Positions 16,844 through 63,400 of a stretch of 64,000 nucleotides of DNA are shown here, piece after piece. Both the position numbers and the translations under genes were made by a program. The stretch is from an uncultured Planctomycetota bacterium (GTDB taxonomy: Bacteria; Planctomycetota; Planctomycetia; Isosphaerales; Isosphaeraceae). The stretch spans positions 96,001-160,000 of the forward strand of contig CAWGMQ010000002.1 in assembly GCA_963823665.1 (NCBI GenBank), read 5' to 3'. Every line of letters begins with the position of its first letter. Positions within the stretch are counted from its first letter, which is position 1. The notes beneath the pieces are model-generated. The model was not told the DNA's origin. It made no database searches and saw only the letters and a list, made by a program, of their open reading frames with translations.

Positions 16844-19800
16844 GGCTCTTGGTCTCCATCCGGCCCACCGGAATCGACAGGAGAAACGAGGGACGATGCG
16901 TTCGCCCTGGACCGCTGCCGGATCAGTCTGATGAAGGACAAGCACCCCTAAAGCGGCCAGGCATCCCGCCGAGCCGCAGAGCCAGAGCGCCCGCGGCAAT
17001 GCGAACACGCCGAGCTGCGCCAGCACGTAGCCGATCAAGAGCCCGGCGATTCCCGACAGCAGCGTCGACCCGGCCCATCGAACCGCCGCGGTCTCCAGCA
17101 GCCGCGTCTCGGTCAATCCCTGGATCACCGAGAAGAAGACCGGCGTCAAGAAGATGCCGAACATCGTCACGCCCGACCATGCCGCTGAACACGGCAATGC
17201 CCAGCGACCGGCGCATCTCGGCGCCGGCGCCGGCGGCGATGGCCAGCGGGATCACGCCGATGATGAACGCAAACGATGTCATCAGGATCGGACGCAGCCG
17301 CAGCCGGCATGCCTCTCGCGTCGCGTCGAAGCCGAGACCAGCCCTCGAGGTGCTTCTGCTTGGCGTATTCGACGATCAGGATCGCGTTCTTGCACGCCAG
17401 CCCCACCAGCACCACCAGCCCGATCTGCACGAAAATGTTGACGTCCCGGCCCGAATAGAGCACCCCCGATACCGAGCACAACAGACACATCGGCACCACC
17501 AGGATCACCGCCAGCGGCAGCGCCCAGCTTTCGTACAGGGCCGCCAGAGCCAGGAAGACGCTGGCCACCGCCAGCGCGAAAACGAACAACGCGGGGTTCT
17601 TTTCCGCCGCCCGGATCTGCACGAACATCAGCTCGGTCCACTCCTCCCTCATCGACAAGCGGCAGGCTGTCGTGGGACGCAGCGTTGATGGCCTTGATGG
17701 CGTCTCCCGAGCTGAATCCCGGCAGCATGTTGCCGGTGATTGACGCAGACGTGTACAGGTTATAGCGCGTGACGACGATGGGCCCGCCACGATCGCTTTT
17801 CACCTGATTCACGTTGACCAGGGTGCCGAGCGGGACCATCTCGCCACGGTTGTTCCGTACCTGGAACAGGTTCAAGGCCTCGATCCGGTTGCGGTATTCG
17901 CCCTCTGCCTGGACAGTCACCTGCCAGTGGCGGCCGAACTGGTTGAAGCTGTTGACGTACAGCGAGCCCAGGAGCATCGACAGCGTCTGATTGACGTCCT
18001 CGAACGCGACTCCCAGGGCAACGGCCTTGGTCCGGTCGATGTCCAGCCAGATCGACGGCGCGTTGGAGCGGAACCCGGTCGCTACGTCGGCCAGACCGGG
18101 CAGGCTCCGCAGCCTGCGCGTCAAGAGGTCGGTCTCGGTCTGCAGATCGGTGAGTCCGCGGCCGCCGCGGTCCTCGACCATGATCTTGAACCCGCCCGCA
18201 ACGCCCAGGCCCGGGATCGGCGAGGAATTTCGCACGCTGACGATGGCATCCTTGACCCGCTTTCTGTACTCGGGTATCAGCCGGGCCATGATGTCATCGG
18301 CGTGCAGCCCGAGAGGGGCCAGATCGAGAATCGACTGCCAGCGCCTCGATCACCCGGCGCTTCTCGCGCCCCGTCAGCTCATGAGGAGCCCACAAGCCCG
18401 CAAGCCGCTCTCCTTCAGACGTTCGATTTCTCCGGCCTGTCCCAGAAGCTTCTTCTCATCCGTGTCGACAACCGGCTTGCCCTGGCGGTCGAACACGCGG
18501 AAATGGAGCACGTCATTGACGGAGGCCACGATGTTCAGGTCGTTGCCTGCTGACGGGATCTCAGTGACGTCCTCGAGCGCAGGCATCAATCGTACGTCAG
18601 ACCCGACGGCGGGTCTCGGCTTGCCGAACGTGCCCTCCCGGATCCGCCTGGGCCACGCCAGCAAGTCGGCGAACAATCCTCGGGGCCTCCGTTCGTCGAA
18701 CGGCTCCAGGACGACGAACATCGAGCCGAAATTGGAGGCGTTGGACTGGAGCAGAAACGACATTCCCGCGAGGCTGACCGCGTGGGCCACGCCCGGCGTC
18801 GCGAGCGTGATCTTGTCGACCAGGGCCATGGCCTCCTTGCGTGCGCTGCAGCGATGCCGAGTCGGGCAACTGCACGCTGAGGATCAGCCGGCCCTGGTCT
18901 TGCTGGGGAATGAAGCCCGTGGGTGCCTGCTGGAAGACCCGATACGAAAGCGCCACCAGGCCGCCGTAGACGAGCAACACGACGAGACTGATGCGCAGCA
19001 GCCTGCCGACCAACCAACTGTACCCGTGGGTGACGATGTCGAACAAGCGGTTAAAGCCCCGGAAGAGCCAGCCCAGGACCGCATTCACCGGCCGAATGAT
19101 CAACCAGCCGACCAACCCGCCGACTAGCAGCGCCCGGAGGCGCGAAGTATGCGACCGTTATCGCCCAGTACATCCAGCCGGTGCCTTCCGCCTTGCCGGT
19201 TTCACTGGAGGAGGCAGGGAGACCAAACCGCCCGCCCAGATAGTCTGGCCCGTAGAGCACAGTCAACAGACCGCCTACCAGGGCGAAGAACCACCAGGGC
19301 AACGCCTCACGCTTCAGCTCATGGCCACCGTGAGCCGCTTGCTCGGTCTTGAAGATCAGCACGGCCCGCGAAGGCGTCATGGTCAGCGCGTTCACAGCCG
19401 AGATGATCGTCGACACGGCGATCGTCACCGCGAACTGCCGGAAGAACTGGCCCGTGATCCCGCCCAGGAAACAGCACGGCACGAACACCGACGAAAGCGC
19501 CAGCGTGATGGCCAGAATCGGGCCGGTGATCTCCTCCATGGCCTTGATCGTGGCGGTCCGCGCGTCGAGCCCCGTCGCCATCATCCGCTCGACGTTTTCC
19601 AGCACCACGATCGCATCGTCGACCACGATGCCGATCGCCAGGACCAGTCCGAATAGCGTCAGGTTGTTGAGCGAAAAGCCCATCGCCGCCATGATCGCGA
19701 ACGTGCCGATCAGCGAGACGGGCACGTCGATCATGGGCAGGATCATGGCCCTCCAGTCCTGCAGGAACACGAGCACCACGATGCCGACCAGGATCACCGC

Positions 19801-44012: not shown

Positions 44013-47000
44013 ATGCGCAAGCACTGGCAAGGTTGCACGTGGGGCGTTCTCTGCACGCTCGCCTGGGCACTCATCGCCGACGCACAGGCACAGCCGGCGT
44101 CTCCCGTTGCGCCCCTCATCCTGCACGCCCGAGTTCGCGAAGCTCGGCCACCTTCCAGCCCTGAAGCGTCCCAGACGCAAGAGAAAACGCTCCGCTGGGA
44201 ACCAGCCCATACGGCCATCATTATCTGTGACATGTGGAACCAGCACTGGTGCCGGGGAGCAACTCGCCGGGTCGGCGAGCTCGCTCCCGCGATGAATCGA
44301 ACAATCGCCGCAGCGCGGGCCAAAGGCATCCTGATCATCCACGCCCCCAGCAGTTGCATGGAAGCCTATAAAGATCACCCCGCACGGAAAAACGCCCAAG
44401 CGGCCCCCAAGGCCGCGAACCTGCCCAAAGACATCGCCCAGTGGTGCAACAAGATTCCGTCTGAGGAACAAGGCATATACCCGATCGACCAGTCCGATGG
44501 CGGCTGCGACGACGGCCCGCAATGCCCCCAGGGCTCTCCCTGGAAGTCCCAGGTCGCGGCCATCGACATTCTCCCGCAAGATGCCATCAGCGATTCGGGC
44601 GAAGAAATCTGGAACCTCCTCGAATCCCGTGGAATCACAAACGTGATGATCATGGGTGTGCACCTGAATATGTGTGTTCTCGGCCGGCCATTCGGCCTGC
44701 GAAACCTCTCCCGATCGGGCAAAACCGTCGTCCTGGTCCGCGACCTGACCGACACGATGTACAATTCGCGGATGTGGCCTTATGTCAGTCACTTCGAGGG
44801 CACCAACCGCATCGTCGAGCACGTTGAGAAGTACGTAGCTCCCACGATCCTCTCCACCGAGTTGACGGGCCAGCCCGCGTTCAAGTTCCAGCCCGACGAC
44901 CGCCCCCGCATCGTCTTTCTGATCGGCGAAGATGAATACAAGACCGAAACAACCCTGCCGGCATTTGCAGTCAAGGAGCTCGAGCCGCTCGGACTCCGCT
45001 GCACGATGGCGATCGCAGACCCGAAAACCCCCCACAATTTTCCCGGCGCTCTTGCACTCGATGACGCCAACCTGCTGGTCTTGAGCGTTCGCCGGCGTGC
45101 ACCAAGTGCCGCCGAGATGGCCCTCATTCGGCGCTACATCGAAGCCGGCAAGCCACTCATCGGCATCCGCACTGCCTGCCACGCCTTCGACACCCGCGGC
45201 AAGGCACCGCCCGGCCATCTTGAGTGGACATCGTTTGATCCCGACGTACTCGGTGGTCATTACACCGGACATCATGCCAATAACGCGCCTCCAACCATCG
45301 AGAAGGCACCTGGCGCGCAAGATCTTCCGATCCTCGCCGGTGTGAGCACACCCTTTCCAGCCTCCGGCTCGCTCTACAAGACCAGTCCACTGGCAAATAC
45401 CGCCGTTCCGCTCTTGATGGGAAAGGCCGGCAATCTGCCGGTCGAACCCGTCGCCTGGGTCAATCGCAAAGGCGCGTTGCGCATCTTCTACACCTCGCTG
45501 GGACACCCTGGCGATTTCGAGCGGCCCGAATTCCGCCGCCTGCTCAAGAACGCCATTTTCTGGGCCCTTGACCGCCAGCCAGCGCCGCAAGCCAAGGATC
45601 GCACAACTGCCGCGGGCAACATTAACAGTCCGCCGTCGGAGAATCGCCTCCCTTTTGATCGAGGCCAAGACTCGCGTTCGCCACGCGCCGCCTTGGCCTC
45701 CTTCCAGGTTCCCGGCGATCTCCAGCTCGACCTTGTCTTGTCCGAGCCAATCGTTCGCCAGCCCGTCTCGATTTCCTTCGACGAGCGAGGCAGGCTCTGG
45801 GTGGTTCAGTATCTCCAGTATCCCGTGCCCGCCGGATTGAAAATGGTCAGCCACGATGGCGTCTGGCGCGCCGTCTACGACAAGGTCCCACCCCCTCCGC
45901 CACATCATTTTCGCGGCAAGGACAAGATCACGATTCATGAAGATACCGACGGCGACGGCGCCTTCGACCGCCACAAGACGTTTCTCGATGGTCTGAACAT
46001 CGTCACGGCTCTCGCGCATGGCCGAGGCGGCGTATGGGTTCTCAACCCGCCTTACCTCCTCTTTTACCCGGATCGCAATCACGATGATGTGCCCGATTCC
46101 GACCCGGAAGTCCACCTCCAAGGTTTCGGCCTGGAAGACACTCATTCCGTCGTCAACAGCCTTCGCTGGGGCCCCGACGGCTGGCTCTACGCGGCCCAGG
46201 GGTCGACCGTCACCGGCCATGTCACTCGCCCCGCTCTTGATGCCGGCAAAGAACCACAACACTCCATGGGTCAATTGATCTGGAGGTATCACCCTGAGTC
46301 GCATCGTTACGAGGTTTTTGCTGAAGGAGGAGGTAACGCATTCGGCGTTGAGATCGACGCCAAGGGACGCATTTACTCCGGCCATAACGGCGGCGACACC
46401 CGCGGCTTCCACTACGTCCAAGGCGCTTTTTACCAGAAGGGCTTCAACAAGCACGGGCCGCTTTCAAACCCTTACGCTTTTGGCTACTTCCCGGCGATGA
46501 AACACAATCGGGTTCCTCGGTTTACCCATACGTTCGTCATCTACGAGGCTGATGCACTTCCGCAGCCGTATCGTGGCTTGCTCTTCGGAGTCGCACCCTT
46601 GTTGAACCACGTGGTGATGAGCCGCGTTTCTCGCGACGGATCCTCTTTCCAGACCGAGGACGTTGGCCTGGCCGTCTCTTCGCGCGATCCTTGGTTCCGT
46701 CCCGTGGACATCAAGCCCGCACCCGACGGATCGCTCTATATCGCCGATTGGTACGACCGCCAGGTCAACCACTATCGCAACCACGAAGGCCAGATCGACT
46801 CCGGCAACGGACGGATCTATCGCCTCCGGGCCCGCAGCTCGGTCGCTGCACCGTTCAAGAAGCCGCTCGATCTCTCTCAACTGACCACTACCGGTTTGGT
46901 GCAGCTCCTCGATGATCCCAACCGGTGGACGCGAGAAACCGCACAGCGGCTGATCGCGGACCGGCGTGACCCAGCCATCGCGCCCGAGCTCGTTCGACTG

Positions 47001-48574
47001 CTGACCGAGAAAACTGGCCAGATCGCACTCGAAGCACTCTGGGCCTTGAACGGCATTGGAAAGCTCGACGAAGCAGTCGCACTCAAATCGCTCGATCATC
47101 CCGACCCCTACGTGCGGCTCTGGACCGCACGCCTTCTCTGCGACGCATCCCGGGTAACACCTGCCGTGTCCCGGGCGCTCGCCCATCGCGCCGCGATCGA
47201 GCCAGGTGTTGAGGTTCGTAGCCAGCTTGCTTGCTCCGCAAAACGTCTGCCGGCACCTGATGCGCTGCCGATCATTCGCGCGCTCCTCGCTCACACTGAG
47301 GATGAGCGAGATATCCACGTTCCCCTGTTGCTGTGGTGGGCGCTCGAAGCGAAGGTCGCATCCGACCCCGAGCTCGTGCTGGCCGCTTTTTCTGAGAGCG
47401 ATATCTGGAACCTGCCCATCGCGAAAAAGACGATACTCGAGCGGCTGATGCGCCGATTCGCCGCCGCCGGCACCAGGCAAGATTTGAGCCAGTGTGCCAG
47501 ACTGCTCGCCCTGGCACCCGGCCCGGAACACGTCAAGCATCTGATGGCAGGTTTCGAGTCGGCCTACGCCGGACGTTCGCTCGCCGGCTTGCCGCCGGAG
47601 CTGGTCGATGCTCTCGCGAAATTTAGCGGTGATTCCATCACGCTCGGCCTTCGGCGTGGCAAGAACCAGGCGATCTCCGATGCTCTCCGCATCCTGGCCG
47701 ACCCGCACGCCGATCGGACCAAGCAGCTCCAGATCCTCCAGACGCTTGGTGAAGTTCGACTCCCCGTTGCCGTGCCCGCCATTCTGCGTCTCGCGTGCGA
47801 GTCGTCTGACAACGCCCTCCGCTCTTCCGCCTTGATTGCCCTCACCGGATATGACGACCCGGCTATCTCCGCCGCCGTGATCAAGACCTGTCCCAGCATG
47901 CCCGACGATGTGCTGGCCTCGGCCCAGAGCATGCTGTCGTCGCGCCGAGCTTGGCGCACGAATTCCTCAAATCCATCGAGGCCGGGACAATCGACGCTCA
48001 TAGCGTTCCCAAAGAAATCGTGGAAAAGTTGATGCTGCTGGGCGATCCCGCGATCAACAGCACAATCACCCGTCTTTGGGGACCGTTGAAACCCGTTTCG
48101 ACAGCCGAACATCACGCCAGGATCACCCGCTTCGCCGCCATGATTGGTGAAGGATCCGGAATTCCCAAGCCCGGCAAGCAGATCTTTGAACAGCAATGCG
48201 CCCGGTGCCATTCGCTCTTCGGAAGGGGTGGAAAGCTCGGCCCCGACCTCACGACGTACCGTCGCGATGATCTGGAAACGATGCTCCTGAACATCGTCAA
48301 TCCCAGCGCCGAGATTCGCGAAGGATTCTCGGGCTCGATTGTCGCCTCGAGCGACGGACGCATCCTTTCCGGTGTGATCGTCGAGCAAGACAAGAACGTC
48401 GTCATCCTGCGCGACAGCGACGGCCACGACGCGATCCTGGCCCGAACCGCGATCGACGCCATGCGGCCCGCCGAAAAGTCTCTGATGCCCGAGGGATTGC
48501 TCGACAATCTCACCCCCCAGCAACTCCGCGATTTGTTCGCATACCTTCGAAGCACACAGCCTCTCGTTGACTGA
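44013..48574 (+). CDS. Isochorismatase-like + ThuA-like + PVC-type membrane-bound dehydrogenase (beta-propeller, HEAT-like repeats, CxxCH cytochrome c); frameshift near 47960
   Basis: IIICDMWNQHWC, GVHLNMCVLGRPFG; RIFYTSLGHP; FDERGRLWVVQY, WFRPVDI; C-terminal CARCH, GPDLT, SLMPEGL. Confidence 0.9.
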
Positions 48575-52886: not shown

Positions 52887-53077
52887 CCCTCCGTCCTCCG
52901 CACGCCACCCTCCGTCCTCCGCCCTCCGTCCTCCGCCCTCCGCCCTCCGCTTGGGTTCGTTCGCGCAATCTGGCCACGTTGTCAAGTCCCATTTCGTTCT
53001 CGTTTTGTGATTCAATCACAAGTCGAGCCTCAACTTATGCATTCCCAGCCACGTGAGCCCGCTGGGTTCGTTCGCGC
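52887..53077. repeat. Intergenic heptamer array (YCCTCCG) plus two copies of tgggttcgttcgcgc
   Basis: Eight YCCTCCG units with one interruption at 52887-52949; exact 15-mer at 52952-52966 and 53063-53077. Confidence 0.8.
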
Positions 53078-53663
53078 GTTTTTCGCCGCCGAACAATCGG
53101 GTACAACCCTTCGCATTCAGAAAACCCCGAGTCCAAGTTCGCGTAGCCTGCTCGGAAACAGGGCCACCACCCAAGCGTGATCGATCGAGAAGGTCCATTC
53201 GGCGATACCGTGCTGGGTGCGACTCGTGTAGTTGACGACGAAGATGAGGACGAGGAGAAGGAGGTGGTTCTCATTGCCCCGAGCCGACTCCGGTGTCAGC
53301 GATCGAGACTCAGATAGGTAGATTATATCATGAGCCTCGTGGATCGGTTTATGTTTTCGATCAGGAAATCTGGATTTCTTCTGCGGGTCAGAGCGAATAG
53401 AACGATCATCACGATCGCAACGACTGAACAGGGAAGATTTGCGCACCGATTCTGCCAGAAACAGGCGTTTCCGAATGCTTGATAAGCGACAGCCGAGCTC
53501 GGCCTGATATTGCCAGGTGATACCCGTTCACCGCCTTCGGGGATGCTTGACCAAGCTGGACCGTTGCAATCTAATTGCACGCTAGGTGACCAGAACCCGG
53601 TCCAAAGCGGTTGGGCTCGCCGCTTATCTGCGAACTGTCGATTGATTCCAGGGAGCGGCAGTC

Positions 53664-54911: not shown

Positions 54912-55041
54912 CGTGACGTACTCGCGGAGGAAAACAGGGGCGCAATTGGTTTGTCTAGGGGAGGGAAACACAGGGCCTGATAGACAAAGCCCCCAGGTGC
55001 TAGTCTCGCTGTTCTTGTCATGACAGCGCCTGCTCACATAA

Positions 55042-55128
55042 CTGAAGGCTTCCGTCAATACGAATCGCGTCCCGGCTTTCGTCCCTGAAGGCTTCCGTCA
55101 AATACGAATCGCGTCCCGGTTTCCGTCC
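55042..55128. repeat. Near-perfect 43/44-bp tandem duplication
   Basis: ctgaaggcttccgtcaa(a)tacgaatcgcgtcccggYttYcgtcc at 55042-55084 and 55085-55128. Confidence 0.9.
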
Positions 55129-55711: not shown

Positions 55712-57593
55712 TCACGGCGTTAGCAGAGCAACGTCTGTTCTGCGCTTGGTGAGCTGTCGACTCGTCCGGGGCCGTCGCAATGCAGCTTCCATGCGATCGA
55801 ACCAAGCAACGAGTGCCAGGGTGACATTCAGCCGGCTGCCGGCCAGGGTGTCGCCGATCCCCATTGCATGCTCCCGCATTGCGTGAATCAGCTTCCCGGT
55901 GTCGATCACTCCGAGGTCGTTGAGTCTGGTACCCAGGACCATCGCCTCCAGGCTGGGCAGATTGCGCGAGGCCGCACCAGTAGATGTCATTGAAGCCTCG
56001 CTTGTCGCGCCTCGCTCGGATCGGTTCGGGCACGATGCCGCGCATTGCCTCTCGGAGGACCGGCTTGCGAGTCCCGAGTGATTCGCGGACAGCCCGAGGC
56101 ACACGCAGGCAGAACTCGACGAGCCGCGGGTCGAGGAACGGATGCGAGTTCGCCATCCCCAACGGCGCCGCGAGGTGCCAGGATGACCAGTTGCCGGAGC
56201 ACGTCTGGATCGCGCAGAGGTCCGCGGACCGCTCGGCGGAAGGGGTGTATAGGCTGCGCGCGAAGTCCAGGCCCTTCTCCCAGAGGTCGTGGTCCCGGGC
56301 GAACTCGCGAGCGATCCAGAGGGGAACTGCCGTCGCACTCAGCGCCGGCCAACCGCCTCGACCGCGGCGAAGCCACGTCCCGATGCCGTCGCGCAGGCTG
56401 GGCGGGATATTGGGCCCGAGCCCGCGGCGCCACCAGATGTCCGCCAGGCTCCGGTTGGTCGCCCGCGCCCATCGCCGCGCCTCGGCCAGCGACTCGATCC
56501 AACGACCGCGACGGACGAGGCCGGCAATCTGGAGGGAGCGCCCATCCAGGAAGTCGTCCGCCCCCGTGCCCGTGAGTATGGTAGCCGCGCCCGCCCGGTG
56601 CGCCTCATCGATCAGGAGTCGCTCCATCCCCATCCGGAAGAGTCCGGCATACGGCTCGTCGTGCTCGGGAATCCCCTCGCCAAACCAGTCGAAGTCGAGC
56701 GCCTCGTCAGCGTCAATGAACCGGCCGTCGATGAGTCCGCCCTGGTTGACGACCATCTCGGCGAACGCCCGTTCCCCCGCCAGGTGGGTATTCCGGTAGA
56801 CGAGCGACAGCGTCGTCAAGCGTCGCATGCCGCCGCTCCCATCAAGGCATCGCCGCGCCTGGCAGACCACCGACGAACTGTCCATCCCGCCCGAGAGGTG
56901 CGCCGCGACGGAACCGCGTGCGACCCGCTCGTCGACCGCGCGACGGAGGAGGTCCTCGCAGCGCGCGCCGGCTTCGACCAGGGTGATCGGTTCCTGGCGC
57001 TCAACGAGACCTGCCCAGTCCCAGGTCGTCGTTCGTTGGATGCACGGGCCCGGACCCAACGTAACGAGGGTTCCGGCCGGAACGCGCTGGACCCCTTCGA
57101 AAGGAGTCGTCTCGCCCGGCAATTCGGTGAACGCGTTTGATGCCATAAGGAAGCGCGAGAAGTACTCCAGGTTGTAGGATCGGCGCCCGCCCAATGACGT
57201 GATGTGGGTGCTCACGGCGACGCCCGGGCCGTCGATCGTCCAGTAAAGGGGCCAAGCGCCGAACGGGTCGCGCAGCGCCAGCAATCGCCGCCGCCGGGGA
57301 TCCCAGACCGCGAGGGAGAACTCACCCTCCAGCCTCGCGAGGCCGGCGGCACCGAGCTGGCGATGGACGGCCAGCGCGAACCCCGCGTCGGTTGCCGAGG
57401 TCAGGCTCTCGCGGACCGACGCCGGCAATCCCCGCATGGCTTCGTCGCGGTAGTGCAACCGACCGATCAAGATGGCTGCAGTCGCCAGGACGGGATCCTC
57501 GGCGAACGTGACGAATGATACCGCCGGCGTTCCGATCAAGCGGAATTCCGCGGGCATTCCCGGAAGACAAACAACCTCGAATCCTGGTTTCAT
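55712..57593 (-). CDS. Lasso peptide cyclase (asparagine-synthetase-like C protein); frameshift near 55970
   Basis: LEGEFSLAVWD, RDPFGAWPLY, HLSGGMDSS (PP-loop), LTGTGADDF, HPFLDPRLVEF, KPVLREAM; no N-terminal catalytic Cys; directly after the B gene. Confidence 0.9.
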
Positions 57594-57786: not shown

Positions 57787-58560
57787 TCAGCGTGACCCGA
57801 AGTAATGGGCCACCGGCTGGTAGATCGCGCAGTTTTCCGGCTCATCGGTGACCACGCGTCCGCCGCACTCAACCCAGGCATGTGCCTCGAACGGATGCCG
57901 ACGGATGCCGACCTTCAGGACCGCCGGCAGCCCGTGGACCGCTCGAAGGATCTGGTAGCCCACGAGGGCTCGTTCCTTGCAGACCATCGGCAGGAGGACC
58001 CGGCGTGACGCCGCGTCGCGGACAAGCTGATCGACCGCGTCGATCACATCATCCCAGCCTGCGGGAGGGGACGGGCCCCGGTCGGCACGGTGCCAGCGTG
58101 TCCACAGCCGGACCGTGGTGGCCCAGCCGAGCAGCCGGATGCTGAACCAGGCGAGGACCATCAGCGATGCTACCGTAAGGCGGCCCGGAGCAGTGGTCCG
58201 TCCATGTCCGCGGCGACCTCGCGGTTTCTCGCTTTCCCGCGTGGCGGCGACCGGACCCCGATGCTTCACCAGCAGCCTTTTGCGGGCTAACTCGCCCACC
58301 AGCGTGGTGAGATCGGTGCGGATGCGGGCGTGGTCCACGCCGTAGAAGTCGGCAGCTCGATCCACCGCCACGTCGAATCCATCGTCGAGCACGAGCGTCA
58401 ACAGCTTCGTCCCGACCGGGTCGAGGCCATAGAACCGGCCTCGATTCAGGTTCAGCAGGCGAGCGATGCCGTCCTGGACGTCCAGGACGACGTCATTGCC
58501 CAGGCGGAGGCAACGTTCGCCCCGTCCCCGATCTGTGACCGCCTGATCCGTTCCCGCCAT
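57787..58560 (-). CDS. Fused lasso peptide B protein: PqqD-like RRE (B1) + transglutaminase-like leader peptidase (B2)
   Basis: RRE: ARLLNLNRGRFYGLDPVG...FYGVDHARIRTDLTTLVGELARKRLL. Peptidase: VCKERAL (Cys), FEAHAWVE (His), VVTD (Asp). Confidence 0.92.
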   Translation of the reverse strand: MAGTDQAVTDRGRGERCLRLGNDVVLDVQDGIARLLNLNRGRFYGLDPVGTKLLTLVLDDGFDVAVDRAADFYGVDHARIRTDLTTLVGELARKRLLVKHRGPVAATRESEKPRGRRGHGRTTAPGRLTVASLMVLAWFSIRLLGWATTVRLWTRWHRADRGPSPPAGWDDVIDAVDQLVRDAASRRVLLPMVCKERALVGYQILRAVHGLPAVLKVGIRRHPFEAHAWVECGGRVVTDEPENCAIYQPVAHYFGSR

Positions 58561-58636: not shown

Positions 58637-58840
58637 TCAAAAGTCGAAGAACCAACGCCCCGGGCCATCATCGAGGCGCCAGCCCGGGCCGCCCTGAAGC
58701 CGGTCCAACGAGCCGAGCACGTAGAGTTGGGGCACCCGATAGGCCGTGGTGAAGCACGGCACCGGCGCGGCCGACTCATCCGCACCGGGAGACTCGCCGT
58801 CTCCGAGAAATCCGTGATACCGTAGCCGCTCTGAGAACAT
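58637..58840 (-). CDS. Lasso peptide precursor A2 (predicted core GGPGWRLDDGPGRWFFDF)
   Basis: gaggag RBS; leader ends YRVPQLYVLGSLDRLQ; core with G1 and D8/D9 (58640-58693). Alternative starts at 58843 and 58849. Confidence 0.88.
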   Translation of the reverse strand: MFSERLRYHGFLGDGESPGADESAAPVPCFTTAYRVPQLYVLGSLDRLQGGPGWRLDDGPGRWFFDF

Positions 58841-58892
58841 CACTGTCATCTCCTCGATTGAAGTACGCGACTGTTCATGGTCGTGAACGACC

Positions 58893-58920
58893 CGGCCGCG
58901 GGCCGGAGGGCCCGCGGCCG
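58893..58920 (-). terminator. Perfect 12-bp stem-loop between precursors A1 and A2
   Basis: cggccgcgggcc-ggag-ggcccgcggccg; no U-tract, so more likely an mRNA stabiliser than a terminator. Confidence 0.65.
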
Positions 58921-58935
58921 CCATCGAAGCAGCGT

Positions 58936-59133
58936 TCAGAACCCGTTGAAGTACCAGCGGCTGGGGCCGTCGTACTCCGAACCGCTCAGGTAGCCCTGGA
59001 GCTTTTCAAGCGAGCCAAGATCGAAGACGGCGGGTTTGCCGTACGCATGGCACGGTGTAGGGCCAGCCGGAGCCGCGGTACGCGGTCTCTCGGGATCGCC
59101 CATCGGATTATAGATGCAGACCAATCGATTCAT
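58936..59133 (-). CDS. Lasso peptide precursor A1 (predicted core GYLSGSEYDGPSRWYFNGF)
   Basis: gaaggaaaggaag RBS; leader ends YGKPAVFDLGSLEKLQ; core with G1 and E7/D9 (58939-58995). Confidence 0.9.
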   Translation of the reverse strand: MNRLVCIYNPMGDPERPRTAAPAGPTPCHAYGKPAVFDLGSLEKLQGYLSGSEYDGPSRWYFNGF

Positions 59134-59206: not shown

Positions 59207-59260
59207 TCACTTTTTCCCGAGGATGATCTCAAGTGCATTGCCGATGATGATGTCGATCAT
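59207..59260 (-). CDS. Micro-ORF 3, 17 aa MIDIIIGNALEIILGKK
   Basis: GAGGAGG RBS 7 nt before the ATG; below the ORF-track cutoff as a standalone ORF. Confidence 0.6.
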   Translation of the reverse strand: MIDIIIGNALEIILGKK

Positions 59261-59343
59261 CTCATGGCCTCCTCGTGAACTTGTTGCGGTTCCAGTTCTT
59301 CGGCGACACCGCCCCCGAGGCGGGGCCGCCCGCACCATCGGCG

Positions 59344-59397
59344 TTACTTGCCGATGCTGATCTTGATCACGGCATCGAAATCGAACTCCTCGATCAC
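59344..59397 (-). CDS. Micro-ORF 2, 17 aa MIEEFDFDAVIKISIGK
   Basis: Purine-rich aggaaagaagagag upstream of a GTG; the frame is also open further upstream, so the start is less certain. Confidence 0.5.
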   Translation of the reverse strand: MIEEFDFDAVIKISIGK

Positions 59398-59705
59398 GTC
59401 TCTCTTCTTTCCTGCATGGTGACGGGTCACGAGACCGAGTGAGAAACGGCTCCAGGCTCGACACACGGCCCTGATACCAGGGTTGCGACTTGACTGTCGA
59501 CACAACGCCTTCCGAGGCAGATCGGTCGAGGAGAGGGTCGCCTTGTCGAACCCGATCTCCACGTGAACGCCTCTTTGGCGGTTGTCGCGCGGAGCCCCAT
59601 CCCTGCGCTTCTTCGAGTTTCGACCCCGAGGCTGCGCCAATTGACGAGCTTGCCGGGCCGGCGCACCGACCCGGCCGCGATCGAGCAATCCCGCTCGATC
59701 CGCGA

Positions 59706-59783
59706 TTACTTGCCGACGTTCCTGACAACGGCCTTCACGGCTTCCGTGACGACGACCTGAATCAAACCGCCAAGGCAACTCAT
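59706..59783 (-). CDS. Micro-ORF 1, 25 aa MSCLGGLIQVVVTEAVKAVVRNVGK
   Basis: GAGGAG RBS 7 nt before the ATG; stop followed by hairpin gatcgagc-N6-gctcgatc (59679-59700). Confidence 0.6.
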   Translation of the reverse strand: MSCLGGLIQVVVTEAVKAVVRNVGK

Positions 59784-59902
59784 GGCTTTTCTCCTCGATT
59801 GTGCGGCAGCCGAGGAAGCCGACGCCGGCTTCCATCCTGCCCGTTGACATGCGAGAATTGCGCGAGCTGCCCTCAGCCCCGCTGAAACGAATCGGCAAAA
59901 AA

Positions 59903-60486
59903 ATGGGCGACGAACGACCGGATGACATAACTAGGCTCCTCAGCGAGGCTCGCGCCGGCGCTGGAAGGTGCGCACGAGGAGCTCGTGCGGGCCATCTACG
60001 GCGAGCTACGGAACATCGCGCAAGGGTGGATGCATCGCGAGCGAGCCGACCACACGCTTCAGCCGACCGCGCTGGTCAACGAGGCGTTCTGCCGCCTGCT
60101 GGAGAAAGAATCGCTGGTCAACGCCCCCAATCGCGCGTACATGTTCGCTGCGGCCGCGGAGGCGATGCGCCGCGTCCTGGTCGAGCATGCCCGCGCGCGT
60201 CGGACCAGGAAGCGGGGCGGGAACCGCGTGCGCGTCCCCCTGGACCAGGTCCTCGCCGGTTTCGACGAGCAAGGCGTGGATGTGATCGCCCTGCACGAAG
60301 CGCTCGAGGAACTGGCCAAGGCGTACCCACGGCAAAGCCAGGTCGTCACGTTCCGGTTCTTCGGCGGTCTCCACGGTGCCCGAGGTCGCGGAGGCGTTGC
60401 AACCGAAAGTTTCGGTCACGACGGTTGAGAGCGACTGGCGGTTCGCGAGGGCTTGATTGAAAGATCGGCTGGGGGCCGTGCCATGA
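59903..60486 (+). CDS. Planctomycete-type ECF sigma factor (kinase-associated); frameshifts and an in-frame TGA at 60454
   Basis: DITRLLSEARAG, IYGELRNIA, HTLQPTALVNEAF, MRRVLVEHARAR..KRGG, RFFGGL, TVESDWRFARA*LKDRL; ATGA overlap with the kinase. Confidence 0.88.
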
Positions 60487-63400
60487 CGAATCCCGAACCG
60501 AATCAGCGGGTCTACGCCATCTTCGACCAGGTGCTTCAGTGCGACCCGTCCGACCGGCCGGCCCTGCTCGACGAATTGTGCGCCGACGATCACGAACTGC
60601 ACGCCGAAGTCGAGCGGCTCCTTGGCGCCGACGAGCGGGCCAGCCAAGAGGACTTCCTGGCGCCACCGAAACAACCAGCAGGCGACGCCGACCACCACCC
60701 GCGGCCACCCCTGAGGCTGCACGGGCTGGAGGCGCACGTCCGCTGCCCACAATGCCAGAACCCGATCGGGCTGGCGAACTTGTCTGTCGCCGAGAACGAG
60801 GTGGTTTGCCCCTCCTGCGGATCGAGCTTCCAGTTGGAGCGGGAGTCGACCGTCCCTTGGAGCCTGCGAAAGGGCCAACGGTGGCTCGGCCGATTCGAGC
60901 TGATCAAGCCTGCCGGTCTCGGGGCCTTTGGCACGGTGTACGAAGCTCGCGACCACCAGCTCGCCCGCACGGTGGCCATCAAGGTTCCCCGGATCGGCAA
61001 TCTAGCCACTGAGGATGATCGCGAACGGTTTCTGCGGGAGGGTCGCAGCGTTGCCCAGTTGCGGCACGAGTTCATCGTGGCGGTCCACGAGGTGGGGGAG
61101 CAAGAGGGGGTGCCCTACCTGGTCAGCGACTTCGTGAAGGGGCTGTCACTGTCGGACTGGCTGACCGGTCGCCGGCTGGCCCCGAACGAAGCCGCCCGTC
61201 TCATTGCCGAGATCGCCCGTGCCCTCCAGTACGCCCACGAGCGGGGAGTGATCCACCGCGACGTCAAGCCGTCAAATATCATGTTGGACGACCAACTGAA
61301 GCCGCACTTGATGGACTTTGGGCTGGCCAAGCGCGACGTCGGCGAAATCACCATGACGATTGAGGGCGACGTGCTGGGAACCCCGGCGTACATGAGCCCT
61401 GAGCAGGCGCAGGGGCAAGGCCACAAAGTCGATGGGCGCAGCGACGTCTATAGCCTGGGAGTCGTCCTCTACCAGCTGCTGACCGACGAATTGCCGTTTC
61501 GCGGCAATCCGCGGATGTTGCTGTACCAGGTGCTCAACGACGAGCCCAAACCCCCGCGTAAGATCAACGATCGCATCCCGCGCGATCTCGAGACAATGTG
61601 CCTGAAGGCTATGGCCAAGGAGCCGACACGCCGGTACTCTACTGCGGCCGCGCTTGCCGAGGATTTAGGGCGGTTCTTGAATGGGGAGCCGATCCAAGCT
61701 CGGCCGGTGGGACAGCTCGAACGGTCGGTCAAATGGCTCCGGCGACGGCCCGCGCTGGCGTCCGCCATCGGAGTTAGCCTGGCGGCAGTCGTCGCCCTCC
61801 TCGCACTCGGTTCCTGGTTTACCCTGAGCTTACAGGGAATCAACCAAGGCCTAAGCACGGCGAACGCCGAGATCACGCAGCGGCGGATGGAAACAGAGTC
61901 GGCCGCCAAGAAAACTCGAGAAAGCCTGGTCCGGCTCTCCAGCTCGACGGGCGACCACGCCGCCGAGGACGGTGACTGGTGGACCGCTCTGCTGTGGTAT
62001 CACCGCGCCTGGAAGCTCGATCAGGGTCGCGGCGAGGCCGGTGGCCATCGACAGCGGATCGCGGCGCTCCTCGCACGCTGCCCGCACCTTTTGGGAATCT
62101 GCTTCCATAAGGACGCGGTACTCGAGGCGGAGTTCACACCATCCGGCGAACGAATCGCGACGGTCACCGAGAATGCGCGTGCTTACCTGTGGGAGCCTCG
62201 TCGGAATCAGTGCCTGGCCGAATTGCGCCACGAAGGAGCCGTAGTTCATGTTACGATCGATCCGGCCGGCCAGCGGATTGCCACGGCCGGGAAGGACGGC
62301 TGCGTTCGATTGTGGAACGCCACCGACGGCAAACCGCTCCTCTCTCTGCATCACCCTGCTGCGGTCAATTGGGCCGCATTCAGCGCCGACGGGACGTACT
62401 TGGCCACCGCTTGCACCGATGGTTTCGTCCGGCTCTGGCAGGCCGACACAGGCGCTGTCGGCTCCGTCAAGATCGCGACGGCCGGCGCAGCGCTGTTCGT
62501 TGTCTTCAGCCCGGATAGCTCCCGGTTCTTGACGGTCGATGACTCGGAACATGCGCGGGTCTGGAACGCAGCAACCGGTGAGGCGCAAAGTCCACCTTTA
62601 CCGCACCGAATGCAGCCCGGGAGTCTGGGTCCTGTCGCCAAGGTGCTTCCCTCGTTCAGTCCGGACGGTCGCTGGGTCGTAACGGTTTATAATCACGGCC
62701 GCTCGGACGGCGTGACCGCGTATGAAAAAAGCTCACTGCATTTCTGGTAAGCAGGAACAGAGTTCAGCAGCGTGCCACGGGGCAAAGCTCTCAGCCAGGC
62801 CGTTTTCAGTCCGGACAGCAAACAGGTCCTCACATTTGGATCAACCCGCACGGTCTGGCTGCTGAACGTGCCTGGAGGCCCCGACGCTGGGGAACGGTAT
62901 TTTGAAACTCCGCGCGAGGTGCAACGCGGTTGTTTTTCTCCGGACGGCCGGGTGATCGCCACGGCGAGTAGTGGAGGATGGGTCCAATTCTGGGATCGCT
63001 CGCGCTTGCTTCCCATCGGCGCCACCACGAGCGACAAGCCCGGCATGAGTTTCCGTCACGTGGCATCGCTCACACAACTCGTGTTCAGCCCGGACGGCAG
63101 CTATGTGTTGTCGGCCGGCCACGATGGAACCGCACGATTGTGGCAACTGCCGCCCAGTCAGTTTCGTGGTCGATTTTATGAATTCGACTGCGGCCGAGCC
63201 CACCTGAGTGGGTCGTGGCCGGATCTCGCCACGGGTCTCAGCGTTGCTTATAGTCCTGACGGGAAGCGAGAGATTCGTTTCGGCCCGCCGGGCAAGACAA
63301 CCATCCAAGAGCGCACCCGTAGCCGGGCGGTTGTTACCTTGAATACCGAGGGCGCTGTGCTCGGGGCTGAGTTCAGCGCGGACGGGCAAAGGGTGGCGAC

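Follow-up and report, generated by a model that had tools for sequence, protein, structure and literature searches.

Three micro-ORFs (ORF1, ORF2 and ORF3) lie directly upstream of a pair of lasso peptide precursor genes, A1 and A2, and judged by their sequence they are real small genes. The reading we favour, at a rough probability of 0.45 and so a little short of even odds, is that they encode membrane-associated, unmodified micro-peptides which would be co-transcribed with the lasso genes from an ECF-proximal promoter region and act as accessory or feedback factors in the producing cell. The window analysed here is a 64-kb stretch of the 16.5-Mb genome of a planctomycete soil bacterium. The micro-ORF locus occupies 59207..59783 of its minus strand, within a 767-nt gap, and the gene order on that strand is ORF1-ORF2-ORF3-A1-A2-B-C, i.e. 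micro-ORFs first and lasso genes downstream (Table 1). The start of ORF1 is 120 nt from the start of an ECF sigma factor gene that diverges from it on the plus strand, and 73 nt separate ORF3 from A1.

Table 1. Features of the micro-ORF locus and its surroundings (window positions).
Feature	Position	Strand	Description
Lasso cyclase (C)	55712..57593	-	Last ~60 conserved residues out of frame (real damage or an indel in the assembly)
Fused RRE (PqqD) and B2 leader peptidase (B)	57787..58560	-	NF033537 above cut-off
Lasso precursor A2	58637..58840	-	67 aa; A1 paralogue (protein z 16)
A1-A2 spacer	58841..58935	-	12-bp hairpin at 58893-58920, z -3.83
Lasso precursor A1	58936..59133	-	65 aa; putative core from Gly, Glu/Asp at 7 and 9; leader/core split inferred
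ORF3	59207..59260	-	17 aa; strong RBS; net charge 0; LGKK end; h-D/E-I-I-h-G motif twice
ORF2-ORF3 spacer	59261..59343	-	Hairpin and RBS; resembles A1-A2 spacer; z 3.97, top non-self score among 2529 post-stop segments
ORF2	59344..59397	-	17 aa; GTG start; weak RBS; net charge -2; alternating pattern rather than helix; IGK end; confirmed by two short-read contigs
ORF2 5' leader	59398..59470	-	Resembles A1 leader; z 3.24, 0/500 shuffles
Hairpin pair directly 3' of ORF1 stop	59653..59704	-	z -4.55, 0/200 shuffles
ORF1	59706..59783	-	25 aa; amphipathic helix; net charge +2; VGK end; confirmed by short-read contig
RBS of ORF1	59791..59796	-	GAGGAG, inside a 12-nt stretch identical to one before A2
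Bipartite ECF promoter-like element	59829..59857	.	8 nt, 12-nt spacer, 9 nt; 46 nt from ORF1 start and from ECF start
ECF sigma factor, PF07638	59903..60456	+	Three frames; profile positions 25-153, then 155-177 in another frame; N-terminal piece by eye
Ser/Thr kinase with WD40 repeats, ECF partner	60483..62750	+	

The coordinates, strand and translations given for the three ORFs in the original prediction were all reproduced, as were several of the signals that it had described. GAGGAG (59796-59791) and GAGGAGG (59274-59268) each lie 7 nt 5' of an ATG, that of ORF1 and of ORF3 respectively; ORF1 and ORF2 finish in an identical 11-nt 3' end; and the ribosome-binding site (RBS) regions of ORF1 and A2 have 12 nt in common. 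Its account of the starts holds for ORF1 and ORF3 but not for ORF2, which begins with GTG rather than ATG and has a weak RBS. Pairing with a standard anti-SD motif gave -8.9, -4.3 and -11.8 kcal/mol for ORF1, ORF2 and ORF3, against a baseline in which 23% of all 3429 ATG/GTG codons in the window reach -4 kcal/mol; a search of the assembly for the 16S 3' end motif was negative.

The trio is unlikely to have arisen by chance. With thresholds chosen after the ORFs were known, dinucleotide shuffling of the 767-nt gap (3000 times) gave at least three hydrophobic micro-ORFs in 0.1% of cases, and none of the shuffled sequences contained at least two with a strong SD or at least two with a shared C-terminal dipeptide. 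Under equally post hoc thresholds, two SD-led hydrophobic micro-ORFs were found in 0 of 1220 real windows and three with a shared ending in 2. GC content at codon positions 2/3 is 0.38/0.75 in ORF1, 0.19/0.88 in ORF2 and 0.19/0.75 in ORF3, and by full codon score the three rank 8, 3 and 5 among the 733 micro-ORFs of the window. This score reflects largely amino-acid make-up, since ORF1 and ORF3 have weak values when synonymous choice alone is scored (0.02 bits per codon, as compared with 0.01 for A1). The ORFs are weakly alike in pairwise DNA comparison (P=0.003 for ORF1-ORF2, 0.023 for ORF2-ORF3 and 0.064 for the remaining pair), and their pairwise protein similarity is not significant (P 0.09-0.22); the retention of start, frame, hydrophobicity and GK end despite diverged DNA argues for selection on the peptides. 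Longer frames that overlap them (194, 173 and 72 aa) were considered as true genes and rejected, as their spacer part looks non-coding and no family is matched.

Short-read contigs cover ORF1 (59683-59909) and ORF2 (59250-59415 and 59273-59423) with zero differences. The 3' part of ORF3 (59207-59249), with its A run, is covered by none of the listed short-read pieces; with this stretch uncovered and frame breaks close by in the assembly, the GKK end of ORF3 is the least secure. There is one such break in the lasso cyclase and two in the ECF sigma factor, and a large DUF7133/HEAT/cytochrome c gene at 44013-48574 is also broken (44013/47951). Breaks in three separate genes suggest indel errors in this assembly, although for those in the cyclase and ECF genes assembly error and real decay both stand as readings; apparent recent gene damage elsewhere in the same genome may also reflect indel errors. 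The stretch from ~54.9 kb to the end of the window at 64 kb lacks an orthologous counterpart in G001, an 84% complete genome of the same genus. A repeat at 54971-55086, present in many copies in both the host genome and G001, forms the left edge of this strain-specific region with the lasso cluster, and a further sequence at 52890-53540 is also found in many copies in both genomes.

The DNA between the micro-ORFs resembles that between the lasso precursors. When 21 pairs of flanks were aligned, two had P<0.01 and scored better than all 500 shuffles, namely the ORF2-ORF3 and A1-A2 spacers and the ORF2 and A1 leaders; these are the two pairs predicted by duplication of a cassette. Among 3915 real SD-led upstream regions used as controls, 4 score as high as the spacer and 11 as high as the ORF2 leader, and in matched subsets the corresponding numbers are 1/577 (strong-SD regions) and 4/390 (purine-rich regions). 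Identity between the spacers is no more than about two-thirds, and their match falls to P=0.011 without the last 20 nt. Four exact repeats of at least 11 nt were observed, a count equalled in 2/2000 shuffles, but at least four also occur in 6 of 86 real windows. Significant hairpins follow ORF1 and A1 (Table 1) as well as A2 (z -2.50); the one 3' of ORF2 falls short of significance (z -0.17) and none was found after ORF3. Neither the coding DNA nor the protein of ORF1-3 is similar to that of A1/A2, and descent of ORF2/ORF3 from A1/A2 coding DNA was rejected on this ground. A DNA alignment of the two cassettes as whole blocks is not significant (z -0.47), and a search of 251 class genomes with the A1-A2 spacer returned short GC-hairpin matches only. 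Non-coding likeness without coding likeness points to a single array of five peptide genes that would have arisen by duplication of a two-gene cassette, with differing coding content in the two copies. Because they are adjacent and have gene-spacing DNA in common, ORF1-3 are probably made together with the lasso genes.

The same observations could be read differently, with the duplicated precursor-type signals now flanking leftover ORFs, perhaps translated but functionless, in an island that is decaying. Such a history would account for the lack of homologues in the collections searched, for the region of 54.9-64 kb that lacks an orthologous match in the same-genus genome, for the cyclase and ECF frame breaks, for the GTG start and weak RBS of ORF2 and for the weak synonymous codon signal in ORF1 and ORF3. 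We nevertheless consider it unlikely, given three intact hydrophobic frames that end in GK and combine low GC2 with high GC3 despite diverged DNA, and coding parts without A1/A2 descent; moreover, an unrelated large gene (44013/47951) is frame-broken too, as assembly indels would produce.

In the lasso cluster itself, A1 has one homologue (50%) with the same start and no Pfam or NCBIfam match. The closest homologues of B are 45-50% identical, and the closest named one is a Nostoc 'lasso peptide biosynthesis B2' protein at 39-43% identity. Lasso precursors carry an N-terminal leader that B1 recognises and B2 cleaves, as set out in part of PMC6993621, and the ring is closed by Asp/Glu and comprises 7-9 residues, according to a section of PMC8498205. 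ORF1-3 were predicted to lack lasso leaders, and indeed show no similarity to A1/A2. In having A1, A2, a fused RRE-peptidase and a cyclase in one row the locus is like multi-precursor lasso clusters with a fused B1-B2; unlike them, it adds three non-precursor micro-ORFs which share the leader and spacer DNA of the precursors and which were found in none of 13 relatives. Among the 120 other genomes of the family, three have a homologous fused-B cluster; further ones were located on metagenome contigs and on one Nostoc plasmid, and no new cluster was found in 401 class genomes. Conservation upstream of such clusters had been set beforehand as the check on the micro-ORFs, and here the expectation failed: hydrophobic GK micro-ORFs are absent from 13/13 clusters with 498-2530 nt of upstream sequence, all of them distant (B protein 28-47% identical; one locus with 78 nt upstream, L041, was left out). 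Three ORFs ending in G-K/R upstream of the 13 clusters are hydrophilic, and a bulk scan of distant loci gave three unrelated matches. As the clusters are distant, this means that the micro-ORFs do not belong to the usual make-up of such clusters and does not show them to be non-functional. At one of the loci surveyed (L027:7480-8090, G015:C546), the lasso precursor is preceded, instead of by micro-peptides, by a pair of small ORFs whose N-termini resemble signal peptides, one of the pair being Cys/His-rich.

None of the collections searched yielded a homologue of ORF1, ORF2 or ORF3, so that the peptides are known from a single genome. In the host genome, searches by DNA, ORF1 protein and patterns gave no true match among the best 100 of 121 and the best 100 of 120 matches. 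The 121 family genomes yielded DNA matches of only 21-47 nt and nine matches to an RBS-to-GK pattern, versus two in reversed controls, none of which was a hydrophobic micro-gene on inspection. Among 401 phylum genomes the pattern had three other matches, two without a start codon and one in a protein C-terminus, and neither plasmids nor viral contigs contained an ORF1-3 homologue. ORF1 extended by five upstream codons had 0 matches among 1.84 billion representatives, a search in which a 25-aa query has little power, and a collection of 15 billion proteins includes A1 and A2 of this very contig and does not include ORF1. In the ESM Atlas, unnamed clusters of 27-41 aa were returned at 0.91-0.92, where recognition is below the reliable level, and a second search there returned nothing. 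ORF2 and ORF3, at 17 aa below the size limit of most protein tools, were sought by pattern only. Searches of open-access papers, main articles only, brought up nothing on arrays of micro-peptides within lasso operons, nor on such planctomycete small proteins.

The three peptides differ in character. ORF1 has the helical hydrophobic periodicity described for it in the original prediction, its moment lying above that of shuffles (P=0.046); neither ORF2 (P=0.94) nor ORF3 (P=0.76) does, and the periodicity of ORF2 is closer to that of a strand (P=0.08) while ORF3 shows neither. Net charges are +2, -2 and 0 for ORF1, ORF2 and ORF3. Only ORF1 has a long uncharged run (13 residues; 4 in ORF2), and the best stretches of 15 contain 10, 9 and 10 hydrophobic residues in ORF1, ORF2 and ORF3, with charged residues within each stretch. 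Calculated monoisotopic masses are 2569.4, 1954.0 and 1853.1 Da (+28 if formylated). The comparison with staphylococcal PSM-alpha peptides that had been proposed thus holds for the tandem small genes, for lengths of ~20-25 aa, for hydrophobicity and for the amphipathic ORF1, and breaks down for ORF2 and ORF3, which are not amphipathic helices, and for charge, as two of the three are not cationic. According to parts of PMC12607899, PSMs form amphipathic helices, leave the cell through Pmt/AbcA and are conserved genus-wide; the operon in the window has no dedicated exporter, and no conservation was found. Three or four tandem leaderless peptides also make up garvicin KS, the cereucins and aureocin A70. 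Such multipeptide leaderless bacteriocins are, as far as bioRxiv 10.64898/2026.09.04.749385 and PMC6131525 describe them in the relevant sections, cationic, ~30-34 aa long and encoded with immunity and export genes, unlike the 25/17/17-aa peptides of the window with charges of +2/-2/0 and with lasso and ECF/kinase genes as neighbours. Type I toxins such as Ibs/Sib and Ldr/Rdl are alike in that short hydrophobic ORFs with polar C-termini are repeated in one intergenic region, and ORF1 and ORF3 reach the 10-of-15 hydrophobicity threshold stated in part of PMC2887945, with charged residues inside the stretch. Toxin loci of this type lie >400/>250 nt from flanking genes and come with antisense RNAs; in the window the distances are 120 nt (ECF gene) and 73 nt (A1), and Rfam and promoter scans detected no antisense unit.

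These comparisons bear on the proposal made originally, a composite operon in which leaderless secreted peptides, membrane-active or signalling and either PSM-like or multipeptide-bacteriocin-like, act with the two lassos. Part of it survives: the ORFs are real small genes, probably co-transcribed with A1/A2, being on the same strand at 73 nt and sharing leader and spacer DNA. The likeness to PSM-alpha is confined to ORF1, and no exporter, immunity, transporter or isopeptidase gene was seen in the operon. Secretion would suit a tandem array of hydrophobic 17-25-aa peptides with Lys tails and an amphipathic ORF1, co-located with antimicrobial-type precursors and built on a scaffold in common with them, and the strand of the array also carries, at a distance of ~7-11 kb, genes for an ABC ATPase and a large permease/aminopeptidase-like protein. 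The ABC ATPase gene is, however, ~10 kb off, beyond the kinase and outside the operon, and the opposite-strand ECF/kinase pair separates the ABC genes from it. With ORF2 and ORF3 neither helical in the required sense nor cationic, with known multipeptide leaderless bacteriocins longer and cationic, and with the micro-ORFs missing upstream of 13/13 homologous clusters, we regard secretion as rather improbable.

Translation of the micro-ORFs, rather than their products, might instead matter, the Ile/Val-rich frames acting in cis as leader peptides that tune read-through into A1-C or access to an RBS by attenuation or coupling. There are seven Val in ORF1 and six Ile in ORF3, strong hairpins follow ORF1, and a 2-codon ORF in the ORF2-ORF3 spacer has a stop that overlaps the start of ORF3, whose RBS is partly paired. 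Against this, no U-tailed terminator was found between ORF1 and A1 and no Rfam match had a meaningful score; A1 and A2 have the same hairpin layout 3' of them, the downstream genes are unrelated to branched-chain amino acids, and a shared GK end would not be needed. Cis action is accordingly more doubtful again.

G-K and G-K-K are the amidation motif of animal peptides, and the C-termini might therefore be signals for PHM-like copper monooxygenases. The host genome has eight PF03712 matches, seven of them over the cut-off, and 14 control genomes have none; these matches to the copper monooxygenase C-terminal domain are on contigs C3, C6, C10 and C12 (L181-L185). None of the eight is on the micro-ORF contig, however, and the peptides have no signal peptide. 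A second form of substrate, ORF2 as a leaderless target of the cyclase, has a precedent in the leader-free lasso formation reported in part of PMC6993621, which relied on removal of Met before Ala. ORF2 alone has an Asp at position 8, ORF1 and ORF3 having no Asp/Glu at 7-9, and it would retain its Met, unlike the published case as described there. Modification in either form is very improbable, and chance or artefact takes the small remainder.

The divergent genes upstream of ORF1 belong to a kinase-associated ECF module. As in ECF43, ECF59-62, ECF217 and other such groups covered in sections of PMC7826278, an ECF gene sits beside a Ser/Thr kinase gene and a conserved element lies 5' of the sigma gene. 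A matrix for this element, built from 4 of 11 close ECF loci with the window excluded and with a selection pattern written after the window had been seen, scored 25.8 at the position in Table 1 versus 12.5 for the next best of 127,940 positions. In the tree, the ECF of the window forms a long branch next to a sister clade (support 99/98; SH 94) that occurs in roughly a third of the family genomes; in this clade, pairing with a kinase was found at 4/4 loci checked and a variant of the element at 21 of 30 loci. The array may be under the control of this sigma factor. Since ECF sigma factors usually autoregulate (PMC7826278, in the section concerned), the element may face the sigma gene, and at its constant distance from the ECF start it may drive that gene alone.

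In the sister clade a hydrophobic small ORF diverges from the ECF gene at 17/30 loci by a fixed rule (18/30 with L244), and the same test of box and position on 27 other ECF loci gave 0/27. The ORF is unannotated, and its product has a conserved hydrophobic N-terminus followed by variable cargo. ORF1 occupies the same slot, being the first SD-led ORF that diverges from the ECF gene, and the start of ORF3 resembles the hydrophobic N-terminus. When residues 2-8 of ORF3 were compared with 5327 SD-led starts, first ORFs of the clade ranked 1st, 2nd and 4th (two of these being orthologues) and a fourth clade ORF 35th, and the top match of a four-locus profile was the start of ORF3, in register although at E 0.31. 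An HMM of the small proteins, on the other hand, places ORF1, ORF3 and ORF2 at ranks 532, 762 and 3302 of 4334, i.e. not as members; PSSM scores are 17-33 bits for members, 3.6 for ORF3 (a value reached by 15/321 hydrophobic controls), -4.3 for ORF1 and -14.3 for ORF2; and sister-clade leader profiles did not match the window leader (rank 248 of 127,920). Descent of ORF3 from this family is a lead, not a result, with the odds against it. The module of the window differs from known kinase-associated ones in that its sister clade has a divergent small hydrophobic ORF without a Pfam match (two members tested), to which the window peptides do not belong. ORF1-3-like peptides are absent at the 11 closest ECF loci, including one 71% identical, and 41 related ECF loci contain two GK-ending micro-ORFs, neither of them an SD-led gene in the divergent slot; ORF1-3 are therefore no fixed part of the ECF module.

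Under the membrane-associated reading that we prefer, ORF1-3 would be translated as the first cistrons of a single transcript, ORF1-ORF2-ORF3-A1-A2-B-C, switched on either by the kinase-activated sigma factor or by a promoter back to back with the sigma gene's own. The cassette [leader-gene-hairpin spacer-gene] would have been duplicated, with one copy carrying the lasso precursors and the other micro-peptides. In RiPP operons, hairpins stabilise the upstream mRNA and so provide precursors in excess of enzymes; here they would likewise let the peptides outnumber the enzymes. Not being lasso substrates, the peptides might partition into the inner membrane of the producer by a hydrophobic face, with the Gly-Lys tail as an anchor, and there modulate the kinase, lasso maturation or lasso release. 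Small membrane proteins modulate other signalling systems in this manner. A more far-reaching version, in which a kinase/ECF-controlled RiPP operon contains a new 17-25-aa leaderless class in a duplicated cassette, the unmodified G-K(K) peptides and two lassos form one membrane-active or signalling system, and ORF3 is a truncated offshoot of the ECF-lineage small membrane protein family, is itself unlikely. If real, the arrangement would show a RiPP operon gaining unrelated micro-peptides through a copied precursor expression cassette with its coding part swapped, a route to composite peptide systems that is invisible to gene callers, and it would offer a concrete handle on the targets of planctomycete ECF/kinase pairs. 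We attach moderate weight to these implications, because the evidence is at the sequence level and from one genome only.

Several further observations concern the ECF module and the host genome. A bipartite motif with a fixed 12-nt spacer lies at -45 to -65 nt from the ECF start in 21/30 sister-clade loci (L236-L265), and its second half is different in 4/11 closer loci (L266-L273); both variants are candidate group-specific ECF promoters. The sister-clade matrix has two high matches in the window, at 18502 (-; 21.5) and 53904 (+; 21.3), with the next at 15.1, and that at 18502 lies ~200 nt before a same-strand gene starting at 18289. The small proteins of these sister-clade loci are 40-150 aa long with a conserved 16-residue hydrophobic N-terminal segment (17-33 bits leave-one-out); examples are found at G000:C8 near 966.8 kb, G001:C2 near 143.3 kb, G103:C18, G068:C41 and G017:C112. 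Two members had no Pfam match and one matched only itself in 5.8 billion proteins. Codon differences across eight pairs are 62/43/75 by position, and the family is a candidate small membrane regulator of ECF/kinase modules. Elsewhere in the host genome, a tandem repeat at G000:C8:542338-542673 carries five copies of a 12-mer at an exact 81-nt spacing.
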